64,000 nt of DNA from Escherichia phage U1G. Numbering within the stretch: the stretch's first letter is position 1; the number at the start of each line of letters is the position of its first letter. Of the stretch, positions 11,824 through 63,800 are shown one piece after another. A model generated the notes under the pieces. That model was given only the letters and a program-made list of their open reading frames with translations, had not been told where the DNA came from and did not search any database. The translations under genes were made by a program, and so were the position numbers. The DNA lies in sequence record NC_070872.1; one strand, written 5' to 3'.

Positions 11824-12998
11824 ATGAACCAGATACCTCAGCACACACTTAGTGATGAACAACTCATGCGTGAGTATGACCGTATTCAGGCGCAGGCATT
11901 TCTCGGACGTAGTGCAGCATTTTTTGGTTCATTACTGTGTAGTCTTAAGTTCTCATGGAAACGTGAAGACTGCCCCACTGCATGTACTGATGGAATAGAA
12001 CTCCATTTCAACCCAGACTTCTTTATCTGGATGTGTCCAGATGCAAGAGAAACAGTGCTAATGCACGAACTCTGGCATGTGGCATATCTGCATGGCATCC
12101 GTCGTGGAAGCCGTGACCCAGAGGTCTGGAACCAGGCATGTGACCACTTCATTAATCTTCAGTTAGAAGAAGATGGATATAAGTTCACTGGTATCGACAA
12201 AGGCATTTGCAAAGACCCTCAATACAAAGGGTGGGTCGAAGAAGACATCTACGATGACCTGATGAAGAACCCTCAGAAAAGGCAGAAGCCGTCAGGGGTG
12301 CTGGAGCAGGTCTTGCTGGTGACATGAAATCTCCCACTTCGGGGCAGTCCCAGGGTGCTGTCGTCAACAACGTAGTACGAGCAATGCAGAGCCAGAAAAT
12401 GGCTGGTGGACAGATGCCCGGTAAGGGTGCTGGTCGTATGGAAGAGGTTATTACCCAATTCCTTAAACCAGTGGTTCCATGGCAGGAAGTCCTCATGAAC
12501 TTCTTTACCGACATTGACGATACTCATTATACGTGGGCCAGACCTAACCGTCGTTTTACTGACATCTATCTACCTTCCATGGAAGATGATGAAGGACGCT
12601 TACGACACTTAGCCTACTTTGAAGATGTATCTGGTTCTATTAGTAGTGCAGATTCTCTGCGATTTAACTCAGAGGTTGCCTACGTTAAGAGCCAGTTCAA
12701 TCCTAAGAAGATGTCCCTAATTACCTTCGACGATATTATTCAAGAAGAGATAGACATCACTGAAGAAGATACTTTTGAAGAGATTAAGATTACTGGTCGT
12801 GGTGGTACAAACCTGGAACCAGTACGTGATTGGATTATTAAGAATAAGCCAACCGCTGCAATCATATTCTCTGATATGTATGTTCGTCCTATGGAAGAAT
12901 TACCATTTGATATTCCTATCATCTGGTGTGTTCTGAATAATCCCAATGCTACCGTACCTTTTGGGGAGGTAGTTCATATCCCTAAAGGAATGAAATAA
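11824..12998 (+). CDS. putative metallopeptidase + vWA-domain protein (DUF2201-like MoxR partner); two ORFs in this assembly
   Basis: HELWH (HExxH) in N-part; MIDAS-like DVSGSIS in C-part; the second frame is open from 12258 with a Gly-rich linker; +1 nt at A4 (12277-12280) or G4 (12295-12298) fuses the ORFs. Confidence 0.5.
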
Positions 12999-37325: not shown

Positions 37326-40300
37326 TTAGTTAGTAAGGTTGAGCCAAGGGTTCAGGTTATGGGCACGTAAGCCTTGACCGAAGCCCCAGGAGTAACCGAG
37401 ATTGCCTTGTGCAGCAATACTGAATATGTTGTCCTGAATAGGTAAACCAACATTACCAAACATGGTAGGAGTTGGAGCCAATATAGCCATAGCTGCATGT
37501 ACCGGGTTATTACGAATCATGGATACTGCAATTTTTGCAGAACGAATCTTAAAGTTATAGAACCACATTAAACCAACACTTTCCATATATCCACGGAAGC
37601 GACCAGGTAAACGGTCGTAGTTAATGAACTCTTCCGTTACACGCCCCAGTGCTTCTTCACGAGTCTTACCTTTACGCTGAGTCAAATCATCATAGATGAT
37701 TGCTTTAGCAATAAAGTCAGAGTACTCAACCGTCTTCTGGATACCCTGGAAGAGAGCAGTATCCTTAGTGATAAGAGCATAACGTCCAGCGTTGCGTACA
37801 GACTTAGGTAACTTATCAGCCAGTTTATCCATGTATTCGTGAAGTTTACCTTCGGTAATCAGGATGTCATCACGTCCAATACCTGCATCTGCAATTGAAG
37901 AGAACTCACCCGCTTCTAACAGAGGCCAAATACTCATACGCTTATGGCTATCAGTGATGGACTGAATCTCAGCCTTAAGCTTACGAATCTGGTTCGGGTT
38001 AGTAGCTGCACGTAATTCTGCTTCTGCATCTACCTGACGCAGACGAGATTTCAGGTACTGATTAATCTCAGCAGTCTTCTGTGGAATGCTCTTAGCAATG
38101 TTCTTAACAGGTACACCACGAGCAACCATCTGGTAAAGGTTAGCCAGGAAGTTAACAGCAGGTACAACTACTGACTTAACCACAATCAGAGTCTTAGCTT
38201 CTTTAACTAAGTTCTGAACCAAGTTCTCACCACCCATTACATACTTATAGGCACGGTTACCGAAGACACCCAGCATAGCTTTCTTGAAGGTATCCAGTGT
38301 TTCTGGGGACCAACGAGAATTACCAGACCAGGCATCACCAACAGAAGCTGCACGATAACCTAGTGCATCGTTGAGCATGTCACGACGTACCCACAGCTCA
38401 CCCGGGCCAAACAGACTTTCTGCTTTCTGACGAGTTTCACTGTTCATCAGCTTAAGTGCATCAGCAGTTACTGGGTCCAGTTTAGAACCAAGAAGGTTAA
38501 CGTACTGAGACTTATTAGAGACAGACATCTTAATGTCGTTTTCATACATGCTATGCAGGTTCTCAATCAGCATATCGTTGAAACGCTGGGCCTTAGCTTC
38601 CTCCACCTGACGTCCACGCCATACACCAATTGCACGAGCAAGATGGTTCTCACCTTCAATGTGCTTCAGCATATTAGGGTCAATGGATTGCTCGTAAGCA
38701 ACCACATTACCATTGGCATCATATACAGGCAGCAGTGGTTCATTACCACGTTCACCACGAGCCAGTGCTTTAGTAATACGGTCTACAGAAGGCTTGTCAG
38801 TAATACGACCTGCTACCATGGTTCCCATCGTAAAGCCTGTACCAAGGTCTACACCACCAGCAGTATTGCGAACGTTCTGTAGGATACCCTGTGAGAATGG
38901 AGCCTGTGCCTGTACAGGTGCGAAGTAGTAGCTACGTGCTGGACCACGGTTAGCAGAGCTACCCTGATAAGTACCCAGACGTACATAGGATTTTTCAATC
39001 AAATCAGCAAATTGGCTATCTTCAGCAACAATCAGGTTAACACCTTGTTTAGTCTCACCAGGAATATACCCTTTGTACTGGTTCAGGGTTGCACGAGTAT
39101 CCGACTTGGCTTTAGCCATTTCATCTTTACGCTGACCAACCAGGTAAGAGGTAGCAAAGTCCATGCCTTCAGTTTCTGTTTGAGCCAGTGAAGATAACAT
39201 CTCACGGTCAGTCTTACTCATTGCTTCCAGTGCATACAGAGTAATCAGTTTATCCAGTTGAGCTACGTCTACAGTAGAACGTGCAGACTGGCGTTCTCCC
39301 AGCATACGAGAGATTGCTGTAGCATTACGCAGCAGGTTATTACCAACTGTACCGTTAATCATGTACTGAGCCAGTTGCTTAGATTTACGGCTAATCAAAG
39401 GCCAGTTACGTCCTGCTTGTTTCTGCAAATCTGCTTCCAGTTTATTAACCTCACGGTCAACAATCTTCTGGTCAGTCAGCAAGTCACGGATTTCAGCCAG
39501 AGACATAGTGTCACGCAAAACAGCTAGGTCAGTTTTACCCATTCCAGTATGCATTGCTTTCCACTCATCATTAGTCAGCTTACGGCTGAACTTAGATGCG
39601 ATAGTGGTAGGCAAATGTTCACGGAACTGTTGACGGTCAGCCTGTACCTGTGCACGTACTGCTTTAATCAAATCGTATACAGAAGCATTACTCTTAGTAC
39701 GACCAGTTAGGTCATTAACCAGGTCATGGAAAGGTTGCCATACTTTACCCTGGTTCATTGCAGCCATAACACCTTCAGCTACGATTTCACCATTCTTCTC
39801 TGTAGCAATAGCAGCTATTAGTTGTGCAGCATGAGCAGCACCTTTGACCAGTGGGTTCTTGGTATTAGCTGCAACTTCACGAGCACCTTCCAAAGCACGG
39901 GTAGACAGTACATCAATAGAATCCACCAGATACTGGTTAGCACGGTCAATAGCATTACCACTAGGAGTAGCAACGGAATCATAGAAGGATTGTGCATTAA
40001 GACTCGTCTGCATGATTGTCTGAGCCAGTGCATCCATACCTTCCTGTACGTTAGTGGCTTTAGTATCACCTGCTACGCGAGCATTCAGACTAGCCATTGC
40101 AGCAGTACCAATGTTAGTCAGCATTGCATCAACTGTATTACCAGATTGCTTATCTGCTTTCATAACTGGAATGTCAGCCAGTACTTTGCGTACTTCTTCA
40201 CTTACCATTGCCAGACCAACAAAGGTAGGTAGTAAGGAAGAACGACCCTGTGCATCAAACTCAATATTGTTAGCACCCATGATGGTATCGAACTTCTGTT

Positions 40301-43300
40301 GAGCGTAGTAACGGTCAGCAGGGTTAGTACTATCTGGGTCAGCCATGAACGCTTCAACGGTCAGGTTCTTAGTAACATGCGTGTAGTATTCCTGTGCACG
40401 AGCCAAAGCAGCTGGGTTAATAGCAGCCTCAGTAGCCAGAGCAGCAACAATGTTAGTGAAAAGACGTTGTTCCTGCATATTCATAGTGAAGCCATGAGCC
40501 TGAACATCACGAGTTACTTTAGTTGCATTCACTACTGCATCAGAGAACTTACCTTTACGAATTACTTGCTGTACTGGTTCAGAACCAATGTAGTCAGTAA
40601 TCAGTTTATCGAAGGTTTTGCCCAACTCTTCCAGACGAGTATTGTCACCATATGCTTTGTTATGGAACAAAGTAGTATCTTTGGCTACAGCAGCAGTAGG
40701 AGCTTGTCCACGCATTACTACAGCAGAGTTAAACAATAAGCCGGAGAACATATCATCAGCATTAGCTGGTGCTTTCTTACGACCAAATACCAGACGCTTG
40801 ATTGCTTCATATACAGCCTGAACCATTGTTTTCAGTGCAGTAGTTTTCTTCTGCTTACTAATCAGTTCACGGTTAGTTAAGCCCCATGCCATGTACTCAT
40901 TAAGTGCAGCAGCTTTAGCCATTGCTGGTTCAATGAAGCCATTAGACAAGTGACCATTAATGGTATTAAGTGCATCAGCATATGCCTCACGTACTGCCGG
41001 GGATTCATCCTTAACATCCAGAGCACGGAATTGATTCATCAGGTCTTCAATATTCTGTACTGCTTCATTAGGAGTACCTTCGTAGTGAGCCAGTACAGAT
41101 TCAAAAGTAGAAGCATGTACTAATTCATGAACCAGAGTCTCTAAGGAAGGAGTAACTAAGTAGATGGTCTTATCTTCGAAGTTAGTCCAGCCGTATGCAT
41201 TACCAGCTTCAGCAGCTTCAATATCTTCCGGTGCTGGACGAGTAATGTTCTTCTCAATAGCATAGGCATCCAGTTGAGAAGGTGTACCGTAAACAACCTT
41301 GTAGTCTTTAGCAGCAAGGGATTTCTGTACTTCTTTCAGTACTGCTTGCTGTTCCGGAGACATCTCTTTAGCCAGCTTAGAGATAGCAGTATTAGACAAC
41401 AGACGTACACCAGATTTCAGTACACGACCAACCTGTTCCATTGCTGGTACTTCTTTCACTGGTTCTGCTTTAGCAGCACGTACTGCATCACGACGCTTGT
41501 TTAATTCAGCATCAAACAGTTCGTTCAGCTTAGCTACTTGTTGGTCTACGGTCAGACCTTCCAGAGAGATTTTACCGTTGTTCACATAAGGAGCACCAAC
41601 AGCAGCCATCTGGTCAACAGTAGTCTGTACCTGGTTCATTACTTTGTGGCGAATATCCACACCCAGTGCAATGTTACGCAGGTTACGTTCAATCTGTTCA
41701 GCACCAATACGTAACAAGTCATCAGTAGCACCCTCACGTTGGTCATATTCCAGAGCAGATTTAGCGATAGCCTGTTTGGTTTCATCAGACAGTTTGCTGA
41801 AGTCTACGTTCTTCATGAACTTAGAGAAGGAGTCATAAACATTCTTGATAGGGTTACCCTGCCAGGAAGTGTATACAGCCTCGTTAGCTTTACGACTTGC
41901 ATCAGTGATGTTATTGATACCAATGTTCATACCATCAAAGATTTTCAGAGTATTCTTCGGAGCACCCTTCATAGTAGAAAGGGTCTGCATCATCATGCCA
42001 TCACCAGTACCAATGGTCATAAATGGAATACCTGCAACACCTGCCTGTGAAGGAGCATAGATGCTCATTGGCACACGCATACGGTCATCTAAGTTGGTAG
42101 CCAGTACTTGGTTAGCAACATCAGTATTCTCACTACCAGCAATGTAGAAAGTCTGTGAGCCAGTCTCAATCATTGGAGCCAGTGGAGACAATGATTCCTG
42201 GATTTCATTCAGTTCTTTCTGTGTTAAGAAATCACCCTTCTTCCATGTTGGGTCTTTTTCTTTTTCTGCCAGCTTAGCCTGTACTGCTTGTTGGAACATG
42301 TCTTGCAGAACCAGAGACTGAATCTGGGTAGCCTTCTGCAAGTTCTCAGTAGAGTGCATCAGACCTTCGCCAACAGTATTACGAATACCAGTACGCATTG
42401 GTTCAACGAACAAGTGAAGCATGTTTTCTTGCAGGTTCTTCAGGGCATTCCCAGATACGGTAAACTTCTGAGGGTCTAACTTACCAGTCAGAGCACCTTC
42501 TACCTGTTGAATAGACAGTTGACCTTTACGCATAACTGGAACATTACCAGTCAGTGCTTCCATGGACGTAAGGAAAGTATCCAGCATAGCCTGAGCATCA
42601 GCCTCAGACGCAGCCTCCTTACCAAACATTGCCATAGCTGGGGAAATGCTAGGGTCAGCAGCGCGAGCTTGCAGAACATCACTGAAGCGTTCATAGATGG
42701 TGTCAGTAATTGCACTAACCATCTTGCCAGCAATACCACGAGCACCGGAACCATAGATGGTAATAGTCAGTGGGTTTTTAGCGATACCACGTTTCAGGTC
42801 CAAAGTACCGTCTTCATTCAAGTTAAAGTCTTTAATGAACAGGTCCATTAACTTCTGAAGATGATTCATCTGGTTCATAACCGGAACGTTGTTACGGTAA
42901 GTAGTACGTAACTCATTCAGTGCTTGTTGCAGACCATTAGTAGATGCTTCATACAAGTCAACACTATCATCCTGTGAACGATGTTCGTTCATAGTCTTAC
43001 CGGCTTTACCGAAGAACAGACCACCTTTAGCAGTATTCTTAATCCAGTCTGAAGTAAACCTACCACCAGTCATTAATACCATTGCGTTGATTGGTCCGTT
43101 AGTTACACCATCGGCTTCAACGTACAGTGGGGTATTAAAGTTAGCACGGTCATCACTGTTCAGGTAACGGGCATACTCCATCAGAGCCATGAGAGCTACG
43201 AAGGATTTATCGCCACCAAGAGACGTCTTCAGAATATCTACTGCATTGGCAGGTAAGTGACCAGACTTATCAAACTCAACCATCATATCTACAGCAGGTT

Positions 43301-46300
43301 TCAGATTACCTTCCAGAGCTTTAGTCAGCTTTTCAGACATAGCTTCACGGGACATGTTATGTACCTTGATACCTAATGCCTGAGCCAGACCTAACTGGAA
43401 GTCAGAGAATGTTTGGCTGTTTTCATTACTCAAGTCAATAGTAGAGAAGGTTGGCAGAATTGCTTCACGAACCAGTTTACTGGATTGTGGATTGTTCTTA
43501 CCTAACATCTGCATACGACCTACACGGGTCATGTTGTAACCATAGTGAATAGGCGTATCCAGACCATTCTCCTGTTCCTGTAATTGATTGATTACACCAA
43601 ACAAAGAGTCATATGCCATAGACACTGACAGGTTCTTACCTTCCAGTGATTTAGCAGTATTCACGTTCAGCAGTTCAGGATTAAGAGTACCAGCACCCAT
43701 CAGTTCCAGAATGTTGTCACGACCTAATGCTTCATAGAAGTTAACCATCGGCATGTGTACACGGAACTCGGTAGCCTGTTCTGCTTTAAGAGCAGCTTTC
43801 TGCTCTGGGGTATTCTTAACAGCAGGGTTACGTAACTGAGTTTGAGCCACGGAAGGAATATCATCACCAAAGTACATTTTCTCTTCTGGTTCTACGAGAA
43901 CAGCTTCCTCGATAGCAGTAGGGAACTTGTTAATGGCATCGTTATCGTCCAGCTTCTCAATAGTATATAGACCAATAGTCTTATTGGAGTCTGGGTCAAT
44001 CTCAGACACATCAAGCATAGATTCTTTAACTTCACCCATCTCAATGAGAGAAGACAGAATCTCTGTAGCCATTGCCATTGGAATACCTTTGGTATAACCC
44101 AGTGGTGCATTTGGATTACGGTCCAAACCCCAGTAAGATTCAATCTTTTGAGCCAGTGAGTTAGTAGCTTCAACCAGAGTCTGAGCATTCTCGAATTCAG
44201 CCAGAATACCTTCTGGTAACAGAGATGCTTCTACACCAGTAATAGCAGCTACGTCTTTCATATCTTTAACAGCAGCATTCTGTGTAGCAGTCAGTCGCCA
44301 TTGCAGACCAGCAAGTACAGCAGTTTCTAACAACTGGTCATTAAACTTAAAGGTATCCCCATCTTTCTCTACGATGTTAAGTAACTTACCACCTACCCAA
44401 CGGTTAGCTTCAGTACCTTCTGCAAAACGTTTACCTACGTTCTTATTAGCAAGGAACTTAGCCAGACGGTCAGACAAAGTAGTCTTCAGAGTTTCGCCAA
44501 AATCAAATAAGTCCTGATAACGCTTAATCACATCACTTGTGAGAGCGTTATTTTCTTTTTGAGTGAATGCTTCAAAGCGAGCAGCAGAAGACAGTGCTTT
44601 CTTAACATCAGTCAAAGGGGATTCAGAACCAATGGTTCGAGACTTAGATTCTTCCGGCAGAGTAAATGCCTTAAGGAACTGGTTCGGTGTCTTGTCATTG
44701 TTATAGACAGGGAACACTGTTTCCATTTGAGATAGGGGTTTACCACCAACGGTATAGTCTGCTTTCAGTTGAGCCAGAGATACCTCTATCTTCTCAACGT
44801 TATTGGTATTACGCCCAGACGTATCTACACCTATTTGAATCAGTGCATTGTTTGCTTCTACGAATGATTGAACAGTATTGAATTGTTCAGGAGTCAGCTT
44901 CTGATTATCAAACAGTTGCAATGATACAAACGGTTGTTCACTGCCTTTATAGAAGGTAGAGCGAATAGCACCAGTATCTAATGACATATCACGATAACCA
45001 TCATGACCAAATACGTCCGACAAGCTAATGTGGTCACCATTAGAGCCAACAACAGTACCGTCAGCAAAGAGCCAAGGACTCTCTTTACGATCACCATACT
45101 TATTAAGAGTATCTTGAGAAATAGTATTCTCTTTTACATAAGCATCTCTTTCAGATTCAGTAGACTGTACATCAGTATCCTGTTTTTCAGACTGGTTCTC
45201 AGGCTCTTTTACAGACTGTGGTTTAGACTCTTTAATAGTAGATTCTGTTTTAACAGCTTCACTAACAGAGGGTTTAGTCTGTACAGTAGAGGTAACTGGT
45301 TCCTGTTTCATAACAGGAGTTTCATCAACCTGATTCACTGGTTCATTGGTCTGTTGAGACTGAGTGGCATCAAGACCACCTTGACGGAACTCTTTAACTA
45401 CCTGGGCAGCAGGCTTGTCCAGACGTGAATCCAATGGGGTAACTTTCACATGAGAAACATTAAGCTCCGGGTAAGCCGTAGCAAGTGCATTAGCAATATC
45501 AGCTACGGTCTTGGCCTCCAGTCCTACTTGCTGGGCAAACTTAACAGACTTGGTATCATACGGATTGACACCGAGGCCAGTACGACTACGTACCCATTCA
45601 CGGGAAGGAGTAAGAGCCTGATAATGGACAGACTTATTCTTATCCGCATTCCCAGAAATCAGATGCTCATTCAACGCTCCGACCTTATTCTGCATGTGCT
45701 GGGCGAACTTCATAAAGTCGTCGAGATAAGCGGAAGCCAAATCGAAGTTACCAGAGTTGTACGCAGAACGAATGCGTTTAGCATGTTGCAACGCAGAGTA
45801 CTGACCTTCATTAGAACGAGACTCGTCGGTTTTAATTTGTTTACTAACAATATCTTGAGGACGTAAGCCTAATTCTTCTGCTTTAGCGTCGAATTCACGT
45901 GCACCCTGTAACAAGGCAGCAGCCGATTGCAGGGCAGCACGTTGTCTATTCCCCAGTGTAATCTTACCTTCACTTGCATGTTTCAGAACCATGTTCACTG
46001 AATCTGCATCCAGTACTTCTGGAGACATATCAGCAGCCATAGCAATGTTGTTTGCTTGGGTTTGGTTAGCTTCTTCAGTAGCTTTCAGTTTACCCGCTTC
46101 AGCCTGCTCCTGAATCATGGAATGAATGGCACGGAATGCACGAAGTACCTTCGGTGTATTCTGAACGTTAGCCATCAGGCCAGAGAACTGGTCAACAATA
46201 TTAGCAGCATGAGAACCTTGTTCCAGGTTAGCCAGAGCACCTGGGTCACGGTTAATGAAGCTATCCATAGACATGATATTGTCATACATCTGGATTGCAG

Positions 46301-48080
46301 CTTCCATTTGAACGTTAGGGTCTTCAGCAGTATTAACCAGGTCAGCCATCTTCTGAATAGCTTCAACACGGTTAGTGGAACCAGAAACAGCTTCACGGAT
46401 TGCTGGGTTAGCTTGTTCCAGTTCTACTGGGTCAAACTTCATTGCCTGAGTTAAGTCAGCAGCATACTGGGTAGCAGCAGCTTTCTCTTCAGGGGAAATG
46501 TCCATTGCATCTACTGCTTCCTGTACAGTTTCTTGTGCTTGCTCTGCCTGAGCAGTAGCTTCTTGTGCAGCAGCATTAACCGTAGCATCTGATACAGGAG
46601 ATGCTTGTTCATTACGCTTAGCAACTTCTTCACCACGTTGAACCAGAATGTTAGTAATAGGAGAGGCTACTTTTGCTAGTGCCTTACCAGCCAGAGAAGC
46701 ACCAGCCAGGGTAGTACGTACAGCAGGACCAACGGCAGCACCAGCAGCCTTAACAGTTGCACCAGGAGCTTGAGCAACTCCAGCAGAACCAAAGCCGTAC
46801 AGTGCACCAAGACCTGCTTGTTCACCGACACCTTTAAGCAAATCACGCTTAGCATCTACATTACCTTGAATTGCTTTATTCTGTGCAAACTGACTAGTAC
46901 CAGACTGAATACCTTCTTCTACGGTTTCACGGAGCATGTTAGAGCCAGCACCAGCCAGTGAACCTACCTTAAGTGGGTTAAGTTCAAATTTGGATACCAG
47001 TGGACCAGTAGCAGCAGCAACTGGAGCAGTTAATCCAGCAGCAATGATACCTGTTTCAGATGCAGTCTGACGACGTGCTTCTTCAGGAGATAAGCCATCT
47101 TTAATATGTTGTTGGTATACAGGAGATTTGGCAGCCAGTTCACTAAATGGCATTTCCATAATTTCATTAGCAGTCTGTTGGTATGCACCACCTGCTTCCA
47201 TGCCACCAATTGCAATAGCAGGTGCAGCAACACGACCAGCAGACAATGCAACCTGTGCAGGACGAGAACCTAATTCAGCAGCTAAGGTAATACCTTTAAC
47301 AGCTTTATCTCCACCTACCATTACTTTGCCAAGTGCAGATACACCACGGATAAGAGGACCACCAGTAAACAGAGAACCAACACCTTCACTCAGCCCGTCA
47401 GAAGCAGCCATACCATTATCAAGTGTATTAGCAACAGAATCAAAAGCATCACGACCAATGCGAGACAGAGAGGCAACCAAACTGCTCTCCCCATTTTTAA
47501 TGTCTTCTTCATAGAGTTTCTGGTTCTTTTGTGCAGAAATCTGGTTCTGATTCTGAACAACCTTACGGGTAGCATTCAGTGCATCAGACTGTAGGTTGTG
47601 TACACCTTTGTTCAACCAGTCAAGACCGGAAGCAATGGTTGCCCCGGCATTATCATTGACCAGACCTGTGCCAAGAGCAGCAATACCCCCAAGGGTATTA
47701 GCAACACCAAGACCAACACCAGAAAGAGTATCGCCAAATGCTTCTGCGTTAGTACGTTGTTTAGATAAGTCCTGACGTACAGCATCAGCAGCATTAGCTC
47801 GGCTATTAAGAATCTGTAGACCTTGCTCATTACCATATTTATTAAGAATTTCTAATGGGGAGGCTTGAGTGAAATCTGCCTGAAGTGAACCTGGTTCGAA
47901 TGCACCGATTCCAAGATTACCTACACGACCAGTTTGGAGATTGTAAGCATTCTCTGGGGTTAATTGGAAAGGGCTTTGCCCTTGTGCAGCTTGCTTCTGA
48001 GAGGTTGCAGTAGAGACATCGACTTGCTTAGCATTAGTGATGCTGTCTGCGAAACCTGCCAGACGGTCAAATGTTGACAT
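37326..48080 (-). CDS. virion-encapsidated RNA polymerase (giant vRNAP, N4 gp50-like)
   Basis: ~3584-aa ORF at the promoter-distal end of the late operon; size and position match the N4 vRNAP; ATG 48080 preceded by AGGAAA (longest ORF starts TTG 48098). Confidence 0.75.
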   Translation of the reverse strand: MSTFDRLAGFADSITNAKQVDVSTATSQKQAAQGQSPFQLTPENAYNLQTGRVGNLGIGAFEPGSLQADFTQASPLEILNKYGNEQGLQILNSRANAADAVRQDLSKQRTNAEAFGDTLSGVGLGVANTLGGIAALGTGLVNDNAGATIASGLDWLNKGVHNLQSDALNATRKVVQNQNQISAQKNQKLYEEDIKNGESSLVASLSRIGRDAFDSVANTLDNGMAASDGLSEGVGSLFTGGPLIRGVSALGKVMVGGDKAVKGITLAAELGSRPAQVALSAGRVAAPAIAIGGMEAGGAYQQTANEIMEMPFSELAAKSPVYQQHIKDGLSPEEARRQTASETGIIAAGLTAPVAAATGPLVSKFELNPLKVGSLAGAGSNMLRETVEEGIQSGTSQFAQNKAIQGNVDAKRDLLKGVGEQAGLGALYGFGSAGVAQAPGATVKAAGAAVGPAVRTTLAGASLAGKALAKVASPITNILVQRGEEVAKRNEQASPVSDATVNAAAQEATAQAEQAQETVQEAVDAMDISPEEKAAATQYAADLTQAMKFDPVELEQANPAIREAVSGSTNRVEAIQKMADLVNTAEDPNVQMEAAIQMYDNIMSMDSFINRDPGALANLEQGSHAANIVDQFSGLMANVQNTPKVLRAFRAIHSMIQEQAEAGKLKATEEANQTQANNIAMAADMSPEVLDADSVNMVLKHASEGKITLGNRQRAALQSAAALLQGAREFDAKAEELGLRPQDIVSKQIKTDESRSNEGQYSALQHAKRIRSAYNSGNFDLASAYLDDFMKFAQHMQNKVGALNEHLISGNADKNKSVHYQALTPSREWVRSRTGLGVNPYDTKSVKFAQQVGLEAKTVADIANALATAYPELNVSHVKVTPLDSRLDKPAAQVVKEFRQGGLDATQSQQTNEPVNQVDETPVMKQEPVTSTVQTKPSVSEAVKTESTIKESKPQSVKEPENQSEKQDTDVQSTESERDAYVKENTISQDTLNKYGDRKESPWLFADGTVVGSNGDHISLSDVFGHDGYRDMSLDTGAIRSTFYKGSEQPFVSLQLFDNQKLTPEQFNTVQSFVEANNALIQIGVDTSGRNTNNVEKIEVSLAQLKADYTVGGKPLSQMETVFPVYNNDKTPNQFLKAFTLPEESKSRTIGSESPLTDVKKALSSAARFEAFTQKENNALTSDVIKRYQDLFDFGETLKTTLSDRLAKFLANKNVGKRFAEGTEANRWVGGKLLNIVEKDGDTFKFNDQLLETAVLAGLQWRLTATQNAAVKDMKDVAAITGVEASLLPEGILAEFENAQTLVEATNSLAQKIESYWGLDRNPNAPLGYTKGIPMAMATEILSSLIEMGEVKESMLDVSEIDPDSNKTIGLYTIEKLDDNDAINKFPTAIEEAVLVEPEEKMYFGDDIPSVAQTQLRNPAVKNTPEQKAALKAEQATEFRVHMPMVNFYEALGRDNILELMGAGTLNPELLNVNTAKSLEGKNLSVSMAYDSLFGVINQLQEQENGLDTPIHYGYNMTRVGRMQMLGKNNPQSSKLVREAILPTFSTIDLSNENSQTFSDFQLGLAQALGIKVHNMSREAMSEKLTKALEGNLKPAVDMMVEFDKSGHLPANAVDILKTSLGGDKSFVALMALMEYARYLNSDDRANFNTPLYVEADGVTNGPINAMVLMTGGRFTSDWIKNTAKGGLFFGKAGKTMNEHRSQDDSVDLYEASTNGLQQALNELRTTYRNNVPVMNQMNHLQKLMDLFIKDFNLNEDGTLDLKRGIAKNPLTITIYGSGARGIAGKMVSAITDTIYERFSDVLQARAADPSISPAMAMFGKEAASEADAQAMLDTFLTSMEALTGNVPVMRKGQLSIQQVEGALTGKLDPQKFTVSGNALKNLQENMLHLFVEPMRTGIRNTVGEGLMHSTENLQKATQIQSLVLQDMFQQAVQAKLAEKEKDPTWKKGDFLTQKELNEIQESLSPLAPMIETGSQTFYIAGSENTDVANQVLATNLDDRMRVPMSIYAPSQAGVAGIPFMTIGTGDGMMMQTLSTMKGAPKNTLKIFDGMNIGINNITDASRKANEAVYTSWQGNPIKNVYDSFSKFMKNVDFSKLSDETKQAIAKSALEYDQREGATDDLLRIGAEQIERNLRNIALGVDIRHKVMNQVQTTVDQMAAVGAPYVNNGKISLEGLTVDQQVAKLNELFDAELNKRRDAVRAAKAEPVKEVPAMEQVGRVLKSGVRLLSNTAISKLAKEMSPEQQAVLKEVQKSLAAKDYKVVYGTPSQLDAYAIEKNITRPAPEDIEAAEAGNAYGWTNFEDKTIYLVTPSLETLVHELVHASTFESVLAHYEGTPNEAVQNIEDLMNQFRALDVKDESPAVREAYADALNTINGHLSNGFIEPAMAKAAALNEYMAWGLTNRELISKQKKTTALKTMVQAVYEAIKRLVFGRKKAPANADDMFSGLLFNSAVVMRGQAPTAAVAKDTTLFHNKAYGDNTRLEELGKTFDKLITDYIGSEPVQQVIRKGKFSDAVVNATKVTRDVQAHGFTMNMQEQRLFTNIVAALATEAAINPAALARAQEYYTHVTKNLTVEAFMADPDSTNPADRYYAQQKFDTIMGANNIEFDAQGRSSLLPTFVGLAMVSEEVRKVLADIPVMKADKQSGNTVDAMLTNIGTAAMASLNARVAGDTKATNVQEGMDALAQTIMQTSLNAQSFYDSVATPSGNAIDRANQYLVDSIDVLSTRALEGAREVAANTKNPLVKGAAHAAQLIAAIATEKNGEIVAEGVMAAMNQGKVWQPFHDLVNDLTGRTKSNASVYDLIKAVRAQVQADRQQFREHLPTTIASKFSRKLTNDEWKAMHTGMGKTDLAVLRDTMSLAEIRDLLTDQKIVDREVNKLEADLQKQAGRNWPLISRKSKQLAQYMINGTVGNNLLRNATAISRMLGERQSARSTVDVAQLDKLITLYALEAMSKTDREMLSSLAQTETEGMDFATSYLVGQRKDEMAKAKSDTRATLNQYKGYIPGETKQGVNLIVAEDSQFADLIEKSYVRLGTYQGSSANRGPARSYYFAPVQAQAPFSQGILQNVRNTAGGVDLGTGFTMGTMVAGRITDKPSVDRITKALARGERGNEPLLPVYDANGNVVAYEQSIDPNMLKHIEGENHLARAIGVWRGRQVEEAKAQRFNDMLIENLHSMYENDIKMSVSNKSQYVNLLGSKLDPVTADALKLMNSETRQKAESLFGPGELWVRRDMLNDALGYRAASVGDAWSGNSRWSPETLDTFKKAMLGVFGNRAYKYVMGGENLVQNLVKEAKTLIVVKSVVVPAVNFLANLYQMVARGVPVKNIAKSIPQKTAEINQYLKSRLRQVDAEAELRAATNPNQIRKLKAEIQSITDSHKRMSIWPLLEAGEFSSIADAGIGRDDILITEGKLHEYMDKLADKLPKSVRNAGRYALITKDTALFQGIQKTVEYSDFIAKAIIYDDLTQRKGKTREEALGRVTEEFINYDRLPGRFRGYMESVGLMWFYNFKIRSAKIAVSMIRNNPVHAAMAILAPTPTMFGNVGLPIQDNIFSIAAQGNLGYSWGFGQGLRAHNLNPWLNLTN

Positions 48081-48142
48081 AGCATGTTTCCTGTTCAAAC
48101 TTATATCGTATATAGGAAGCTTACTCTACAGTAAGCCTGTGT

Positions 48143-54176: not shown

Positions 54177-54815
54177 TTAATCGTTCAGGCTACCAGCAGC
54201 AATCTGTGCCTGAGCCAGTTGAGCTAATTCTGCTTCAGTCAACGGAGGCAGTACTTCAATGGAGAACTCTCGTGCTTCTGTTGCACGGATATCCGGTAAG
54301 CCATTCTTACCTTTACGAGTCGTAATATTGATGAACTTACGCTCTTTTAGGAACTCATAGATACAGTACGGAATGTGATAACCATTGTCGGTTACTTCAC
54401 CGAATGGAACAAACTTACGTACAGTACCCATATATTCGTTAGCTACGGTGATAATCTCACCCGGCAGGTCTTTCTTCTTAGGGTCAAGGTTCTGGATACG
54501 TACACGAATCAATCGGGTCTGTTCTGCACGAATCTTCTGACCCAGGGTCATCTTCTTAACACCGGCTTCTTGATTAGCACCCAGCGGATTAACAGCAGCT
54601 TCTACTACTGGTTCATCTTTTACTTGTGCAGCTTCAATCTTCTCACGAAGCTTCTCAACGGAAATGTTGTTAGAGAACTTGATATTCATCAACGTTGCAC
54701 GTTGCTTAAGAACTTCAAGTTCGCTAGGCATTGCAATATCGTTAACGGTATCTTCGTTGCCCTGTACGTTCACTTCTACGTCAGTGGTCGGTTTATCGTT
54801 AATGCTCATGTTCAT
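54177..54815 (-). CDS. virion structural protein (hypothetical)
   Basis: ORF directly downstream of the major capsid gene. Confidence 0.45.
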   Translation of the reverse strand: MNMSINDKPTTDVEVNVQGNEDTVNDIAMPSELEVLKQRATLMNIKFSNNISVEKLREKIEAAQVKDEPVVEAAVNPLGANQEAGVKKMTLGQKIRAEQTRLIRVRIQNLDPKKKDLPGEIITVANEYMGTVRKFVPFGEVTDNGYHIPYCIYEFLKERKFINITTRKGKNGLPDIRATEAREFSIEVLPPLTEAELAQLAQAQIAAGSLND

Positions 54816-57699: not shown

Positions 57700-59970
57700 T
57701 TACAAGTTCATGCCAAGAGCCGATGCTGGGTCTTGGCTAGGGTCATAGAATTGGGAACTAAGTGAATAAGCTGGGTCTTGTTGTGCAGCTAAGTCACGTT
57801 CTGGTATAGAGTTCCCGTTAGTCAAAGCGTTATATCCAACAGCAGCAGATATGTTGGGGGTAGTTTCACCTTCTTTAGTAGGTGTTGTCAACGCCTTAGT
57901 TATCTGAAGGTTTTGGTTTCCTTGGGATTGTGCTTTTTGTTTTTCCATATCACGAGCATGTTTAGTACCAGATTCCTGTTCCAGATAATCCAGGTCTTTA
58001 AGGTCACCACTAGAAGCAGCTTCTTTAGCTTTAGCATTATTGAGTGCAATCTTACTTTGTAACTCTTCATTCTCAAGCTGTGCTTTCTGAATTGCCAATT
58101 GCTTAAGCTGTTCTTCCATAGGGTCTGGTTGTGGTTGCCAAGTACGTAACTCATGAGCAAGGTCTGGCATACGTTTAAGTTCTGCAATCTTAGCTACAAG
58201 AGATAACGTAATAGACTGGTCAACTGTGTTGCCTAGTGTTTGAACCATGAAGCCCAAATCCTGGGACTTCTGGTTATCAATTTCAGCAGTGTTAATATCA
58301 ACCTCAATATCGAAGTTACCTTTAAGGTCTTCACGGTTAATTTCTACATACTGTTCATTAGTAATACGTACCACTTCCTTCTCAGATAAAAACACAGCAT
58401 TCATTGCACAAATTTTAGTACCAATGTCTGCCATACCCTTAGCTAATCGACGAAGGATTGCCATCTCACGTTTGGATGCTGCATCTAGTACACCACGAAT
58501 ACCAGCAGCTACATCACCGTAAGCTTCCCCAGTTACACCACCTGAGAATGCTTTAACACCAGTTAGTGCTTCTGCTTCCTGGTTTTGCATCTGAGTCATT
58601 ACTATTGCCGATTGAGGTAACTCAGGGAACTTATGTTCCATGATGGCCTGACTAGGATTACCCTGCATTGGGTTGTATTCATAGTCTTGCCCATCATCAT
58701 ATCGACGACGGTTCAGGGTATCTAACATCCCTTTAGGGTAACCACGTTGACCATTTGCACTTCGACCCAACAGGTCAATCATCCCACGCATGGTTGCACC
58801 AAGAATTGCCTGGTTATCCCCCAACAGTTCAGCATCAGCTTCACCGTAGAGTTCACGTTTACGGGGCATATAAGGAACAACTACCAATGGTAACTTGCCG
58901 TCAGGAAATGGGTTCTTCTCCATACGAATAAGAGTAGAACCAATCCAGGTAGCAACAATTGGTTCCAGTGAACCATCATCGTTAATGTCGTAGAATCCCC
59001 AATACTCATAAGCAATTACTTTCTTGCGAAGTGCATCCTTAAACTGGAAGTCACCAGGAGTTTTACTTTCATGGTCTGGGTCAGTCATAGGACTGGAACT
59101 TTCCCAGTCAATCTTATCCAGGTTGTGATAACGGTCTTTGTTCTTCATGAGGTCTGCTTTACATGTCTCAAACGAAATGACTGCATACAAAGCCTTATCC
59201 AAATCACCATTACAGCTTGGATCAATAACTACGTTATTGGGGTTAAGCATTTCAACGGTAGGTCTGTTAACCAGTGCTTTCTCTACTTCTACTTCAGTAA
59301 CCCCCGTCTGGATTGCGTAAGTAGCTTCCCCGGTTTCATTGAAGTAGTTAACAGCTTCTTTAATATCTTCCGGCATCGTCTCGTCATACTCACGAGGATT
59401 CTCTGCCTGAAGCTGCAAAGCCTGTTGAAGAACATCTGCTTGTTCCTGGTTCTCAATTGGATACAACTGGAAAACTGGAGTTTCTGTTTTAATCTTAACA
59501 GTCTTACGCTCCCAGCCAATACGAGCAATACCAGTACCATCATCTACGACACTATGTACGTAATCGTCTACCAGTTTTACTTTATTAAGCTGAGTACGGA
59601 ATTGGTAGTTAAGAACTAATTCATTCTGACGTGCAGCTAATTCATCTTCAAAAGTAACAGGAGTTACTTTAAAGAGTTTATTAGACGAGAGGAATGGTTC
59701 AGACAATGGTGCATAACGCCACTCTGCCTGACGGCGAACCAGTCTAGGTTGAACTTGCGAACGTCCTTTAACTTTGGGTGGTTTAGCCTTACCCTTAACT
59801 TCCATCAAGTCATTCCACTCACGAATCTGAGCCATGATTGCATCGTGAGCAGGTTTAGCTGATTCCAAATCACCTTTCAGTAATTGGATACTTGGTTCTT
59901 TCTTCCAGTCCGTTAACTTCTCTGATTGAGCCGGGTCTGGTAAAGGCTTAAAAGTGTCTTGGTGTTCCAT
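57700..59970 (-). CDS. portal protein
   Basis: 756-aa ORF upstream of scaffold and capsid genes; size and position match N4 gp59. Confidence 0.55.
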
Positions 59971-59972
59971 AG

Positions 59973-60479
59973 TTATTCCTGTTCAAAAAGTTTACGGTCA
60001 GCCTGAATCTGTTTACCCAACTCAATTAGTTGGCTGTCACGGAGTCTAACAGTTGCCCGGAGTTCTTCAACCAAACGTCTGCCTTCTTCAAGACTGCTGT
60101 CGAGTTTGGCTGCATGGCTTGCAAGACTTCTGCACTCAAGGGTTCCGGCTTCGGCTTGACGTTTATATACCGATGCTCGTCTTTCAGACTGTTGCATCCG
60201 GCTGTCATAATCACTGCTAACGCGAGCAAGCTCGCTTGCGTAATTACTCTCAGCCGTCTGCAACCGAGAAGTGAGTAACCCGACTTCATAACTATGGTTT
60301 CTTTGGAGAGCATCGTATTTGTCCTGTAATTTTTGTATTGCCTTTTGGTCTTCAACCTTTTGGTTATCCCACTTCTTTTGAACAGTAGACTGCCCATTGG
60401 AATTACCCCAAAAGTAAATGGTGGCCCCAAGGACCACCACCAGAAGATAAGGCCAACCTTTAGAGATTAGCATCTTCAT
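59973..60479 (-). CDS. i-spanin (Rz-like)
   Basis: N-terminal [18 protein letters not shown] then charged coiled-coil-like domain; overlaps the muramidase 3' end. Confidence 0.5.
60026..60289 (-). CDS. putative o-spanin (Rz1-like), embedded in the i-spanin gene
   Basis: Alternate-frame ORF with hydrophobic signal-like segment ending TAGC followed by Pro-rich tail; lipobox atypical. Confidence 0.3.
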   Translation of the reverse strand: MKSGYSLLGCRRLRVITQASLLALAVIMTAGCNSLKDEHRYINVKPKPEPLSAEVLQAMQPNSTAVLKKADVWLKNSGQLLDSVTAN

Positions 60480-61094
60480 TACATGCCTCCAGTGGCACAT
60501 TGCCTATTCGGTTAGCTACCCAACCATACGTAAAGTCTGGCATGTTTAATGAGGTATAGTGGTTTAGTTGTTTAGCATCAAGCAGCTTAATCATTACCTG
60601 ACATGCTGCAACTTTGCCTCGTTTTTTCTGTAATGCTTTATAAGCATTAACAGTACTTGCACCGACTTTACCATCAACCTGTATTTTAGGGTAGTCTTTG
60701 CCATCACGGGACATTTCATTAAGGGATAACTGCAACCACTTAGCCGGACGGGTTACACCAGTATTAACACCAGCATCTACCAGCTTATGCGTTACAGCAG
60801 GAGATATATCAGCGAAGGCTACGAAGTTAGGCTTAAGTACGTAGTCATCAATGTATATCTCAGCAGCCATCTCCTTAGATAAACCTTTCATAGAACCACC
60901 CCAACCATATTCAGTAGCCAGAACCTCCTTATGAGACTTAGCTACCGATTGGGTAATACCATGATTAGTTTCCCCACCTGGGTCACGAGGATTGTTTACA
61001 TAACCCCTTCCATATAGAACACTGCCCCCAGGATAGCAGCGACAACCCCTCCCACTGCACCACCTTTTGCAGCAAGTTTCTGTTTAGCTTTCAT
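60460..61094 (-). CDS. GH108-type N-acetylmuramidase endolysin (N4 gp61-like) with signal-anchor-like N-terminus; frameshifted in this assembly
   Basis: YVNNPRDPGGETNHGITQ GH108 motif; SD-preceded ATG 61094 encodes MKAKQKLAAKGGAVGGVVAAILGAVFYMEG in another frame; +1 nt in C4 (61004-61007) fuses them. Confidence 0.6.
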
Positions 61095-61476
61095 GAGAAT
61101 TTTCCTTTGGACGGAACCGTATTAATCTGCCTATGATGTTTAAGGCAAACAGTGCGATTGCAATATTGGAACCATGGGGAATATCTTCCAGGATGTGACG
61201 AGGTAATCCTGTCACCATTGGTTGGATGATATCTACAGCAGAAAATAGAATTAAACCAAACGTACTAATTTGAACGGATGCCCACTTCCAGGACTTCTTC
61301 CAGTTAGGTACTAACTCAAACTTTCTTTTAGCCTGCGAACCATGCGAATATCTCCCGTCTTGCAGCAGCCAATACACCAATAATTGCACCTGCTCCAGCC
61401 CATACCCACTTACCGAAAATTCCAGCACCAACAACTTTATGCTTAATGGTGATGAACTCTTCAATAGTAGGCTCAT
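61084..61476 (-). CDS. putative lysis-associated membrane protein (holin candidate)
   Basis: Two predicted TM helices in the C-terminal 80 aa; N-terminal 50 codons overlap the upstream ORF. Confidence 0.3.
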   Translation of the reverse strand: MSLLLKSSSPLSIKLLVLEFSVSGYGLEQVQLLVYWLLQDGRYSHGSQAKRKFELVPNWKKSWKWASVQISTFGLILFSAVDIIQPMVTGLPRHILEDIPHGSNIAIALFALNIIGRLIRFRPKENSHES

Positions 61477-61657
61477 TTTTAGCTAAACTATCCTCCACAT
61501 TTTTCAGTCTATTACCTATGTCATTGATTGAATCCCGCAGTTCTCCTAGAGTTTCCTCCAGTTTCTCACGGTCCTGTCTGTCTCTTGTCTGGTTCTCAAA
61601 CAGAGTCTTCAATCGTTCCTCCAGTCTGACTAGAAGCAGTTCACCCGATTCATTCAT
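61328..61657 (-). CDS. putative membrane protein with N-terminal coiled coil and C-terminal TM (holin/antiholin candidate)
   Basis: C-terminal VVGAGIFGKWVWAGAGAIIGVLAA. Confidence 0.3.
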   Translation of the reverse strand: MNESGELLLVRLEERLKTLFENQTRDRQDREKLEETLGELRDSINDIGNRLKNVEDSLAKNEPTIEEFITIKHKVVGAGIFGKWVWAGAGAIIGVLAAARREIFAWFAG

Positions 61658-61880
61658 AATATTACCGTAGTTGTAAAGTTAAGAACCCCTATGGGGTCGT
61701 ATCATAAGATGACTCTTAGATAATACTTAGTATGCTGAAATACATCCAGACAAAGAGACGAGCAAAACCTGTGCTTTGTAGAAAGGGCATCATTGGATAT
61801 ATTCAATACCCTATGGGGGAGAGTTACCCTAACCATTTTTACAGTTAGAGCAATGGAATCAGCAAACACTAATGGGTTTG

Positions 61881-61909
61881 GTAGTGGGGTACTAAATTTA
61901 CCCCACTAC
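61881..61909. other. 9-bp stem hairpin after the tailspike stop
   Basis: gtagtgggg-loop-ccccactac; no clear U tract. Confidence 0.3.
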
Positions 61910-61915
61910 CTAAAT

Positions 61916-63800
61916 TTACTGCTTCAAGCCATATACAATAATATCTGCACCTAATGTAGTCCACGCTTCGTCACCACGAGAACTTGCGCAGTTAACCGTA
62001 AACCCAGAAGGGGTTTGGTTAGTAACGCTAAATACAGGGGCAATACTCTGCAATGCACCAATACCCCCATTAAAGGTTACGGCTACACGATAATCCAGTA
62101 AGTTAATAGGTAGTGTTACTTCAGTACTACCAGCGGAACCAGTAGAGCGGGTGATAGATATACCCTTACGATAGATGAATTGCCCATTACGCAAACCAGA
62201 TAAAGTGGTGTTATCGGAGAGTGAGTCCACAATATCCCCAGCAACAATACCAATACCAGTTAAATCAGTATTAGTAATGATTCGTACACCACCTTCCTTG
62301 GTTCTTTCTAGTACCCTGGTTCCAGAAGCCAGACTGTATTTACCAGTTAATGTACTACGACAGGTAACGTTAGTAAGGTCAAAATAGTTATTAGAGCTGC
62401 TGGCATCATTAATAAGGTAAGAGAAGTTAACACATCGCACATTACTCATAGTAATTTGAGAATCTGAACCCTTACTTGAAACATCTACAAGATAGGGGTA
62501 TTGGCTGTTTGGTATGGAGGGTAATTACCCGCATGATAATTAGAAATACCTAATGCAACCCTACCATCTATGTAGATAGCAGAACCCGTTCCTGTATTTT
62601 CAGAACCACAATTATGCATACTAATGCTTCGGGTATCTGTAGTAGCGTTATCACCGGAACCACCGCCAAATACATAACTCCAGCGGGTAGTATGGTCGCA
62701 TGCACAATCAATAATTGAACTATAGCCACTAGCTAAGTAGTAACCACGATTAGCATAATCAACATAGCATTCTTTTATGTAGGTACTAGTACCGTCTTGG
62801 ATATAGAACCCGGTATCCGTACAGTTACGAGCAATACACCGGGATATACGTTGAATCCATGAACCTTTATCAAATATACCAAACTTATAACCTTCAAAGA
62901 GGCAATCTGATACGTAACTGTTCTCCGTTATACTAAAATAGATACCGTAGTCAGCATTGACTGTAGTTGTAAAGCGAATACCTGAAATACGAGCATACTT
63001 ACTCTGATTAGTATCTGTTAGTACAACAATAGCAGCATTTACGTTAACATCCACCCCGTAAGCATCTGGCTCAGTTATACCTGTCTTAGCTAAGGTAGTT
63101 AATTCAATAATTGCATTACCACCTTGTCCTTCAATTTCATAGTTATAAAAGCCTAAATTGCGATACAACAAGGGTTTAGTAATAATGTACTTCTTGGATG
63201 GAATCACCAACTTAGTTCGATTCAGTTGACAGTAATCCATTGCTGCTTGAATGGCTTCAGTATCATCAGTAACACCATCCCCCATAGCACCAAATACTTG
63301 CGGGGTAACATAGTGTATATACTTATTAAGTAGTTCCTCTTTCAGGTATGCGTCGGATATAGCAACCCAATTAGCATCCCCAACAGGGGATGATCCAGGA
63401 GCTACAGTAACGGGTAGTGCACCCTGGTAGGTGTATCCAGTACCATTGTAAACGAGTATGTCATTCTTAGTATTTACTATGGAACCGGTGGAGAACGTGC
63501 CAGGTAGGGTAGTATACTCCCCCTGCTTTTCCCAAGTTCCCCCAAATCAACAGTACCTGCTGAATGAACCAGGATTGCTTGTTCATTCAGGCTTACAGCA
63601 GTGGTTCCTACCGGGAGTACGGGCAAAGAGTAAGCACGCTGAGTAGTCTTATCATAAATGACCTTGTATTCCCCTAAGTCTACACCTACAGCAAAGTAAA
63701 CAACCTCATTCTGCTTAACTCCAAAGTGACGGGCTACTGCTTGTTTGTTGGTTAAGATTCCAGTGGAACCTTTACCACCTTGTGAGAACATTTCGTTCAT
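61916..63800 (-). CDS. tailspike/tail fibre with pectate-lyase-like beta-helix; three ORFs in this assembly
   Basis: AAGAGG SD before ATG 63800; GDGVTDDTEAIQAA beta-helix signature; +1 nt in C5 (63519-63543) and in G4 (62495-62498) gives one ~628-aa ORF. Confidence 0.55.

Follow-up and report, generated by a model that had tools for sequence, protein, structure and literature searches.

We analysed a lysis cassette of Escherichia phage U1G (sequence record NC_070872.1) within a stretch of 64,000 nucleotides (nt), here called the window, which by sequence comparison represents the larger part of a genome from a new isolate belonging to a known N4-like genus (Gamaleyavirus, G7C/N4-like). The cassette occupies positions 59973-61657 on the minus strand, and homology and gene order identify it as a canonical five-gene N4-type lysis cassette of Gamaleyavirus, predicted to be part of the late region. 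Two of its genes, gp62 and gp61, are each frameshifted by one missing base in a homopolymer run, and both frameshifts are very probably sequence errors.

A preliminary description of this DNA had proposed two holin-type membrane proteins, a GH108 muramidase, an i-spanin with an N-terminal transmembrane domain (TMD), and an embedded o-spanin, located between the tailspike and portal genes. The lysis open reading frames (ORFs) flagged there were all recovered from the ORF list with unchanged coordinates and on the minus strand; each component is strongly supported by N4 homology, and the location by the ORFs themselves and the annotations of relatives. The features are as follows, where "repaired" denotes a gene read after restoring one base.

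61328..61657, minus strand: gp63 homologue, 109 amino acids (aa), intact in the window (ORF list and N4 homology)
61084..61343, minus strand: gp62 homologue, repaired, 86 aa, putative class-II-like holin, two TMDs, DUF7940; frameshifted after codon 6 as sequenced
61084..61476, minus strand: 130-aa ORF as listed, two TMDs; read as an artefact
60460..61094, minus strand: gp61 homologue, repaired, 211 aa, GH108 and PG_binding_3
60996..61094 (32 aa) and 60460..60891 (143 aa, C-terminal part), minus strand: gp61 pieces as sequenced
59973..60479, minus strand: gp60 homologue, putative 168-aa i-spanin; the ORF list has 59973..60500, 175 aa
60026..60289, minus strand: gp60a homologue, putative 87-aa o-spanin precursor, within the listed ORF 60026..60430
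57700..59970: portal gene, directly downstream of the cassette
61916..63285, minus strand: tailspike gene, upstream of the cassette, split

We compared the gene order of the window ORFs with the annotations of St11Ph5, PGN829.1, N4, G7C, Moo19, Paxi, and Gutmeister. The order is gp63-gp62-gp61-gp60 with gp60a embedded, all on one strand, with the portal gene adjoining and a tailspike or appendage gene upstream, and this position is the usual one in every N4-like genome examined. In St11Ph5, the corresponding genes are gp63 (330 nt), gp62 ("holin," 261 nt), gp61 (N-acetylmuramidase, 636 nt), and gp60.2 (i-spanin, 507 nt), with the o-spanin gene gp60.1 embedded and gp62 beginning 16 nt ahead of the gp63 stop; the annotations of G7C and N4 have the same layout. 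The repaired window genes overlap by 16 nt (gp63/gp62), 11 nt (gp62/gp61), and 20 nt (gp61/gp60), which is the normal compact arrangement of an N4-type cassette. Nothing separates the cassette from the annotations of G7C, St11Ph5, and Bp4 or from the characterised N4 cassette, and it is in this sense already known.

A megablast search of a phage collection with positions 59900-61750 as the query matched 93 records. The best match was Escherichia phage PGN829.1 (97.8% identity over 100% of the query, with 1851 window bases matched to 1853 reference bases), followed at 94-96% identity by Bp4, St11Ph5, pSb-1, ECBP1, UE-M6, and other G7C-like phages; the larger segment 40000-64000 is 93-95% identical to the same G7C-like phages. 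PGN829.1, St11Ph5, and G7C are assigned in their records to Schitoviridae, Enquatrovirinae, Gamaleyavirus. All five cassette products are homologous to those of N4, at 57-69% identity, with gp62 and gp61 compared after restoring one base each. The N4 genes gp60-63, which have been characterised by complementation and by assays with carbonyl cyanide m-chlorophenylhydrazone (CCCP), lyse E. coli in about 25 min when expressed from a plasmid (Awuah et al., bioRxiv 10.1101/2025.11.12.688109).

The gp62 frame and the 149-nt overlap

As sequenced, gp63 and the listed 130-aa ORF overlap by 149 nt (61328-61476); the latter lies in the +1 frame relative to gp63, and one inserted base cannot fuse the two. 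In a three-way alignment of the lysis region from the window, PGN829.1, and St11Ph5, there are exactly two gaps, both in the window and both homopolymer deletions. The first (minus strand, GGCT-AAAAGAAAG vs. GGCTAAAAAGAAAG) falls six codons into gp62, at 61326-61329, where the window has A4 (a T-run, T4, on the plus strand) vs. A5 in the closest relative; the run overlaps the gp63 stop codon (61328-61330), which is unaltered. The conserved gp62 start codon, ATG 61343, is preceded by GGAG 8 nt upstream and lies in the third frame, as Met23 of a listed 32-aa ORF (61311..61409). From this Met (MVRRL...) the raw sequence holds no uninterrupted gp62 ORF, as it stops after 10 codons (MVRRLKESLS); with one A restored, gp62 reads MVRRLKRKFELVPNWKK... 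to the stop at 61084, a total of 86 aa.

The repaired gp62 is 96.5% identical to PGN829.1 gp62 and shows no decay downstream of the shift. It is 61% identical to N4 gp62 (blastp, 1e-40), scores 50.6 bits with Pfam DUF7940 (cut-off 27), and matches phrog_1356, "holin," at 4.8e-29. Hydropathy places its two TMDs at about residues 21-42 and 55-77, and both termini would be cytoplasmic. By tblastn, gp62 was found in 113 phage records, each time as a single in-frame piece, and the match begins at residue 1 in all listed Escherichia, Shigella, and Klebsiella relatives.

By contrast, the 130-aa ORF is composite: its C-terminal 80 residues are the gp62 body, and its N-terminal 44 or so residues come from the +1 frame inside gp63. 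In PGN829.1, St11Ph5, G7C, and N4, this +1 frame reaches a stop no more than about 10 codons past the end of gp63 and never runs on into gp62, and in Moo19 it has internal stops as well. The N-terminal part of the ORF is therefore best read as a chance-open frame, and the 130-aa ORF as artefactual, with the 149-nt overlap arising because one A is missing from the A5 run at 61326-61329. The preliminary description had singled out this overlap of about 150 nt as one that, unlike the others, could not be closed by a single base. This is literally true of gp63 and the 130-aa ORF, but it concerns the wrong pair of frames, since, with one A added, the body of the 130-aa ORF becomes continuous with ATG 61343 in the third frame. 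The overlap is thus not exceptional: it results from the same kind of 1-nt homopolymer deletion as the other frameshifts, and the true overlap is 16 nt. A fusion of gp63 to the 130-aa ORF was considered and rejected, as the frames differ by +1 and relatives have separate genes.

All three forward frames are open across the TMD-coding part of gp63 (about 61380-61480, minus strand), and relatives are alike in this. It could be supposed that the 130-aa ORF is a real, overprinted second holin whose N-terminus is encoded in the alternate frame of the gp63 TMD region, as its 130 codons are open from an ATG and three frames are open over this segment. We regard this as extremely improbable in view of the stops in the +1 frame of the five relatives and of the annotation of gp62 in relatives as a protein of 86-87 aa; moreover, the three-frame openness follows from the TMD codons, whose Gly/Ala/Trp-rich composition easily gives rise to spurious long overlapping ORFs.

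The gp62 frame also continues without a stop for 22 codons ahead of the conserved Met (61343-61409, minus strand), through the TMD-coding sequence of gp63, where it reads MGMGWSRCNYWCIGCCKTGDIR-. A possible long form of 108 aa in this third frame would start at GTG 61409 or ATG 61403. This extension has no stop in N4, the Gamaleyaviruses, and Gutmeister; a stop breaks it in Shigella phage Moo19, and Paxi lacks it, suggesting that a dual-start antiholin role is not universal. A 109-aa long form with alternative starts has been discussed for N4 gp62 (Awuah et al.).

The gp61 frame and homopolymer runs across the window

The second gap in the three-way alignment (GGAA-GGGGTTATG vs. GGAAGGGGGTTATG) corresponds to the plus-strand C-run at 61004-61007, where the window has G4 on the coding strand (C4 on the plus strand) vs. 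G5 in relatives. The missing G falls inside the conserved EGGY motif, at the junction of the SAR and catalytic domains, and splits the endolysin into a 32-aa ORF (MKAKQKLAAKGGAVGGVVAAILGAVFYMEGVM followed by a stop) and the remainder of the enzyme. When the G is restored, a 211-aa gp61 colinear with St11Ph5 gp61 is obtained, and only then is EGGY present alongside the Pfam domains GH108 (71.9 bits, cut-off 21.2) and PG_binding_3 (32.0 bits, cut-off 24.6). Once repaired, the cassette proteins have their full length and align with those of relatives from one end to the other.

To place both gaps in context, the PGN829.1 genome was rebuilt from three stretches and the whole window was aligned to it. 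Clean single-base gaps in well-aligned sequence are nearly always window deletions within homopolymer runs. Eleven runs of 5-7 nt are shortened by one base, starting at 12295, 14370, 15974, 22222, 33300, 35567, 49901, 61004, 61326, 62495, and 63519, and no clean homopolymer run is lengthened anywhere in the window relative to PGN829.1. The observed frequency of shortening rises with run length in PGN829.1:

Runs of 4: 3/253 shortened in the window, at least one of which, at 24785, is a 3-nt in-frame deletion and not an under-call
Runs of 5: 7/71 shortened (10%)
Runs of 6: 3/12 shortened (25%)
Runs of 7: 1/2 shortened

Mapped by coordinates onto the PGN829.1 annotation, the shortened runs fall in the endolysin, the tailspike (twice), SSB, a gp51-like virion structural protein, an HNH endonuclease homologue, and small hypothetical genes, and two are intergenic, such as 15974 and 35567. 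In the tailspike gene, a missing G at 62495-62498 splits the reading frame into ORFs of 177 and 266 aa (61916-63285, minus strand), and a second base is missing further upstream, at 63519-63523; the PGN829.1 homologue is one coding sequence of 1887 nt.

Shortening that depends on run length and goes in one direction only is a signature of sequencing or assembly, namely homopolymer under-calling, and it is very improbable that all of these changes are real mutations in a phage that is viable. Therefore, we consider both cassette frameshifts very probably to be sequence errors of this kind (A5 to A4 in gp62, G5 to G4 in gp61).

The gp62 deletion might instead be genuine, making U1G a natural gp62-null variant or giving it an N-terminally altered holin translated from an in-frame start further upstream in the 130-aa ORF (ATG 61476, or an internal TTG or GTG). 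The 130-aa frame is indeed open with in-frame ATG, TTG, and GTG codons, and N4 gp62, a late-triggering holin with two TMDs, is non-essential: a deletion mutant is viable and lyses about 1 hour earlier (Awuah et al.). We nevertheless find a genuine deletion very unlikely, since it is accompanied by about 10 other such shortenings, including those in the catalytic motif of the endolysin, in the tailspike (twice), and in SSB, whose joint inactivation is implausible in a viable phage. The changes are always deletions and become more frequent with run length, which is a technical signature; the gp62 body after the shift is undecayed; no Shine-Dalgarno sequence is evident before ATG 61476, in contrast to the GGAG ahead of ATG 61343; and the +1 extension is joined to gp62 in no relative. 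Even less likely is the specific outcome that the A4 allele is real and that the late holin is lost, or re-initiated inside the gp63 TMD region as an N-terminally extended form; if so, lysis timing would differ from that of relatives, by analogy with the N4 delta-62 mutant.

Programmed recoding, in which the gp62 and gp61 frames are restored at the A or G run by ribosomal frameshifting or transcriptional slippage, would fit the position of both shifts in homopolymer runs, the usual substrates of slippage. However, the runs are only 4 nt long, far below the 8-9 nt or more of known transcriptional slippage tracts. In addition, gp62 is single-framed in all 113 relatives and gp61 in the relatives examined, which indicates that there is no conserved recoding signal, and runs between genes, such as 15974 and 35567, are shortened in the same way. 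The probability of recoding is, in our view, practically negligible.

Several points weigh against under-calling and the functional picture attached to it. Proof that the deletions are errors and not real mutations would have to come from sequencing reads, and our argument is made from sequence comparison. The closest relative is only about 95-98% identical, and the expected base is taken from relatives, not from the U1G isolate. Since N4 can do without gp62, a real frameshift in this gene would be tolerated. The functional roles are transferred from N4, and G7C shows no lysis inhibition (Awuah et al.), suggesting that regulatory details may differ in Gamaleyavirus.

Two other differences from PGN829.1, at 24785-24788 and 54598-54604, each remove 3 nt in frame from a short tandem repeat (GAAGAA, CTTCTT) and could be real polymorphisms. 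Within the virion RNA polymerase (vRNAP) ORF (37326..48098, minus strand), about 585 nt at 44729-45313 find no megablast counterpart in PGN829.1, whose corresponding gap measures about 183 nt; this segment is divergent or inserted, and the giant ORF stays continuous across it, with 3590 codons from a TTG vs. 3450 aa in PGN829.1.

Predicted lysis proteins and their genomic setting

The gp63 homologue is 69% identical to N4 gp63 over 107 aa (blastp, E = 1e-54) and matches phrog_5211 (2.7e-50), while a Pfam search with gp63 gave nothing above the cut-off, only sub-threshold coiled-coil noise. Hydropathy reveals a single hydrophobic segment, a Gly/Ala-rich TMD at about residues 80-100 of 109, placed C-terminally after an N-terminus predicted to be helical and cytoplasmic, with a coiled-coil region and a conserved "LIN" segment (PTIEEFITIKHK; residues 62-72 or so of N4 gp63). 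The segment PTIEEFITIKHKVVGAG is identical to N4, and the TMD essentially so. In N4, rapid-lysis mutations cluster in the gp63 "LIN domain" (S62, T65, I70, T71, I72) and in the gp61 SAR domain (Awuah et al.). Four of these five LIN positions (T65, I70, T71, I72) are kept in the window, and S62 is replaced by Asn. These features support gp63 as a putative C-terminally anchored pinholin, by analogy with N4 gp63, which is C-terminally anchored, acts as the main lysis timer, and complements the S21 pinholin but not lambda S (Awuah et al.).

The repaired gp61 is 69% identical to N4 gp61 (blastp, 4e-109) and also hits the PHROG endolysin family; its best sequence matches in the PDB are 6v3z and 6v40, the 6v3z chain having been deposited as "Sen1395" (E = 7e-27). 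Its N-terminus, MKAKQKLAAKGGAVGGVVAAILGAVF, aligns to the N4 SAR domain and has the properties of one, being a weak, Gly/Ala-rich TMD flanked by Lys. We take EGGY to have a catalytic role, presumably as in Stojkovic & Rothman-Denes 2007, an assumption on which a literature search for GH108 and EGGY found nothing. The domain content and the N-terminus support gp61 as a probable SAR endolysin with GH108 N-acetylmuramidase activity. N4 gp61 shows SAR behaviour and complements endolysin defects in the backgrounds of both lambda (large-hole holin) and phage 21 (pinholin) (Awuah et al.).

With its start at 60479, gp60 shares 20 nt with the end of gp61, and this start agrees with the one annotated in St11Ph5; ATG 60500 of the listed ORF lies seven codons upstream. 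The protein has the type II architecture of an i-spanin, with a TMD at about residues 8-25 by hydropathy and a predicted helical periplasmic domain that has a single Cys. It matches phrog_6197, "Rz-like spanin" (2.1e-77), has a weak sub-threshold match to DUF2514 in Pfam, and is 58% identical to N4 gp60 (blastp, 2e-61). The gp60a gene (60026-60289) is wholly embedded in the +1 frame of gp60 (59973-60479) and encodes a precursor of 87 aa, or of 95 aa from ATG 60313. It has the h-region and lipobox Cys of an o-spanin: the core pattern of the PROSITE PS51257 type matches, with Lys2 and with the lipobox T-A-G-C, whose Cys is Cys32 of the 87-aa form. The mature protein would have 56 aa, the same length as reported for N4, with a Pro-rich N-terminal part. 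Pfam and PHROG searches with gp60a gave no hits, and its identity is assigned because of tblastn conservation and the experiments on N4 gp60a: it is 57% identical to N4 gp60a (blastp, 2e-33), and tblastn found it in 153 phage records, with hosts including Escherichia, Erwinia, Achromobacter, Klebsiella, Pseudomonas, Stenotrophomonas, and others. Overall, the evidence supports gp60/gp60a as a likely i-spanin/o-spanin pair, by analogy with N4 gp60/gp60a, which fully complement lambda Rz/Rz1 (Awuah et al.).

The TAGC lipobox had been called atypical in the preliminary description, and its Thr at position -3 does lie outside the strict consensus, [LVI][ASTVI][GAS]C. It is, however, common to Gamaleyavirus and Moovirus relatives, and the Cys does not vary among the seven further N4-like phages that were inspected:

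TAGC: window, St11Ph5, G7C, Moo19
IVGC: N4
LLGC: Klebsiella phage BaqKoxi
LTAC: Achromobacter phage Axy13
LAGC: Paxi, Gutmeister

The segment after this Cys (INVKP..EPLS..LQAMQP..ST) is invariant or nearly so, and the Paxi o-spanin annotation cites a LipoP prediction. In a survey of spanins, deviations from the consensus were found among 528 o-spanins, and AWAC was validated experimentally (PMC6139136). From these comparisons, TAGC appears as a mild, lineage-wide lipobox variant that is not peculiar to the U1G window.

A promoter scan of 59900-62000 remained at chance level (four found vs. 3.5 expected). Five terminator-like hairpins were found in the same interval vs. 1.6 in shuffled sequences, four of them within coding sequence or spanning a gene junction. 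The 258-nt gap from the tailspike stop to the gp63 start contains a short GC hairpin, GACCCCATAGGGGTT (61684-61698, minus strand), after which the sequence is only moderately T-rich, and a similar element, CCCTATGGGGG, lies at about 61808-61820. The hairpin GACCCCATAGGGGTT may act as a terminator or attenuator between the tailspike and lysis genes.

The value of these results is mainly practical, as the cassette is a textbook N4-type module and offers no new biology. The window carries systematic homopolymer under-calls, on the reading preferred here, by which at least gp62 (holin), gp61 (endolysin), the tailspike, SSB, and a virion protein are split or distorted, and any unusual overlap or split gene in it should first be weighed against this error model. 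In public records, gp63 often carries the label "tail length tape-measure protein" (PGN829.1, Bp4, and others) or "tail needle protein." In the PGN829.1 record, gp62 is unannotated, the i-spanin is cut to 225 nt, and the o-spanin is missing; other records too leave gp62 or gp60a unannotated.

Relation to characterised lysis systems

The pinholin, holin, SAR, and spanin activities proposed for the cassette are carried over from the N4 experiments. By this analogy, gp63, as a tail-anchored pinholin with a single TMD, would depolarise the inner membrane and thereby release gp61, the GH108 N-acetylmuramidase, which would at first be tethered to the inner membrane by its N-terminal SAR domain. The two-TMD holin gp62 would trigger late as a back-up, and the inner-membrane i-spanin gp60 and the lipoprotein gp60a, as the o-spanin, would then disrupt the outer membrane.

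The cassette resembles that of N4 (EF056009) in the order and orientation of its genes, in its place upstream of the portal gene (gp59), in the gp63/gp62 (16 nt) and gp61/gp60 (20 nt) overlaps, in a SAR-like gp61 N-terminus followed by EGGY, and in a fully embedded gp60a with a mature lipoprotein of 56 aa. It differs in genus (Gamaleyavirus vs. Enquatrovirus for N4), in the gp62/gp61 overlap (11 nt vs. 14 nt in N4), in LIN position S62 of N4, which is Asn here, in the lipobox (TAGC vs. IVGC in N4), in the starts of the gp62 long form (GTG/ATG vs. ATG/ATG in N4), and in the two 1-nt homopolymer deletions of the window copy. The cassettes of G7C (HQ259105), St11Ph5 (NC_070873), Bp4, and PGN829.1 (NC_070871) are closer, at 94-98% DNA identity: the coordinates and overlaps of gp63, gp62, gp61, gp60.2, and gp60.1 and the TAGC lipobox are the same, and the window differs only by point substitutions and its two missing bases.

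A Pfam search found no sequence homology of the window proteins to the systems of phage 21 and lambda. S21 has two TMDs, unlike the single-TMD, C-terminally anchored gp63, and the window endolysin is a predicted GH108 muramidase rather than a T4-lysozyme-type enzyme. The likeness to S21/R21 of phage 21 and to Rz/Rz1 of lambda instead lies in the predicted scheme of depolarisation by a pinholin, release of a SAR endolysin, and an embedded two-component spanin, and N4 gp63, gp61, and gp60/60a complement the corresponding defects of phages 21 and lambda (Awuah et al.).

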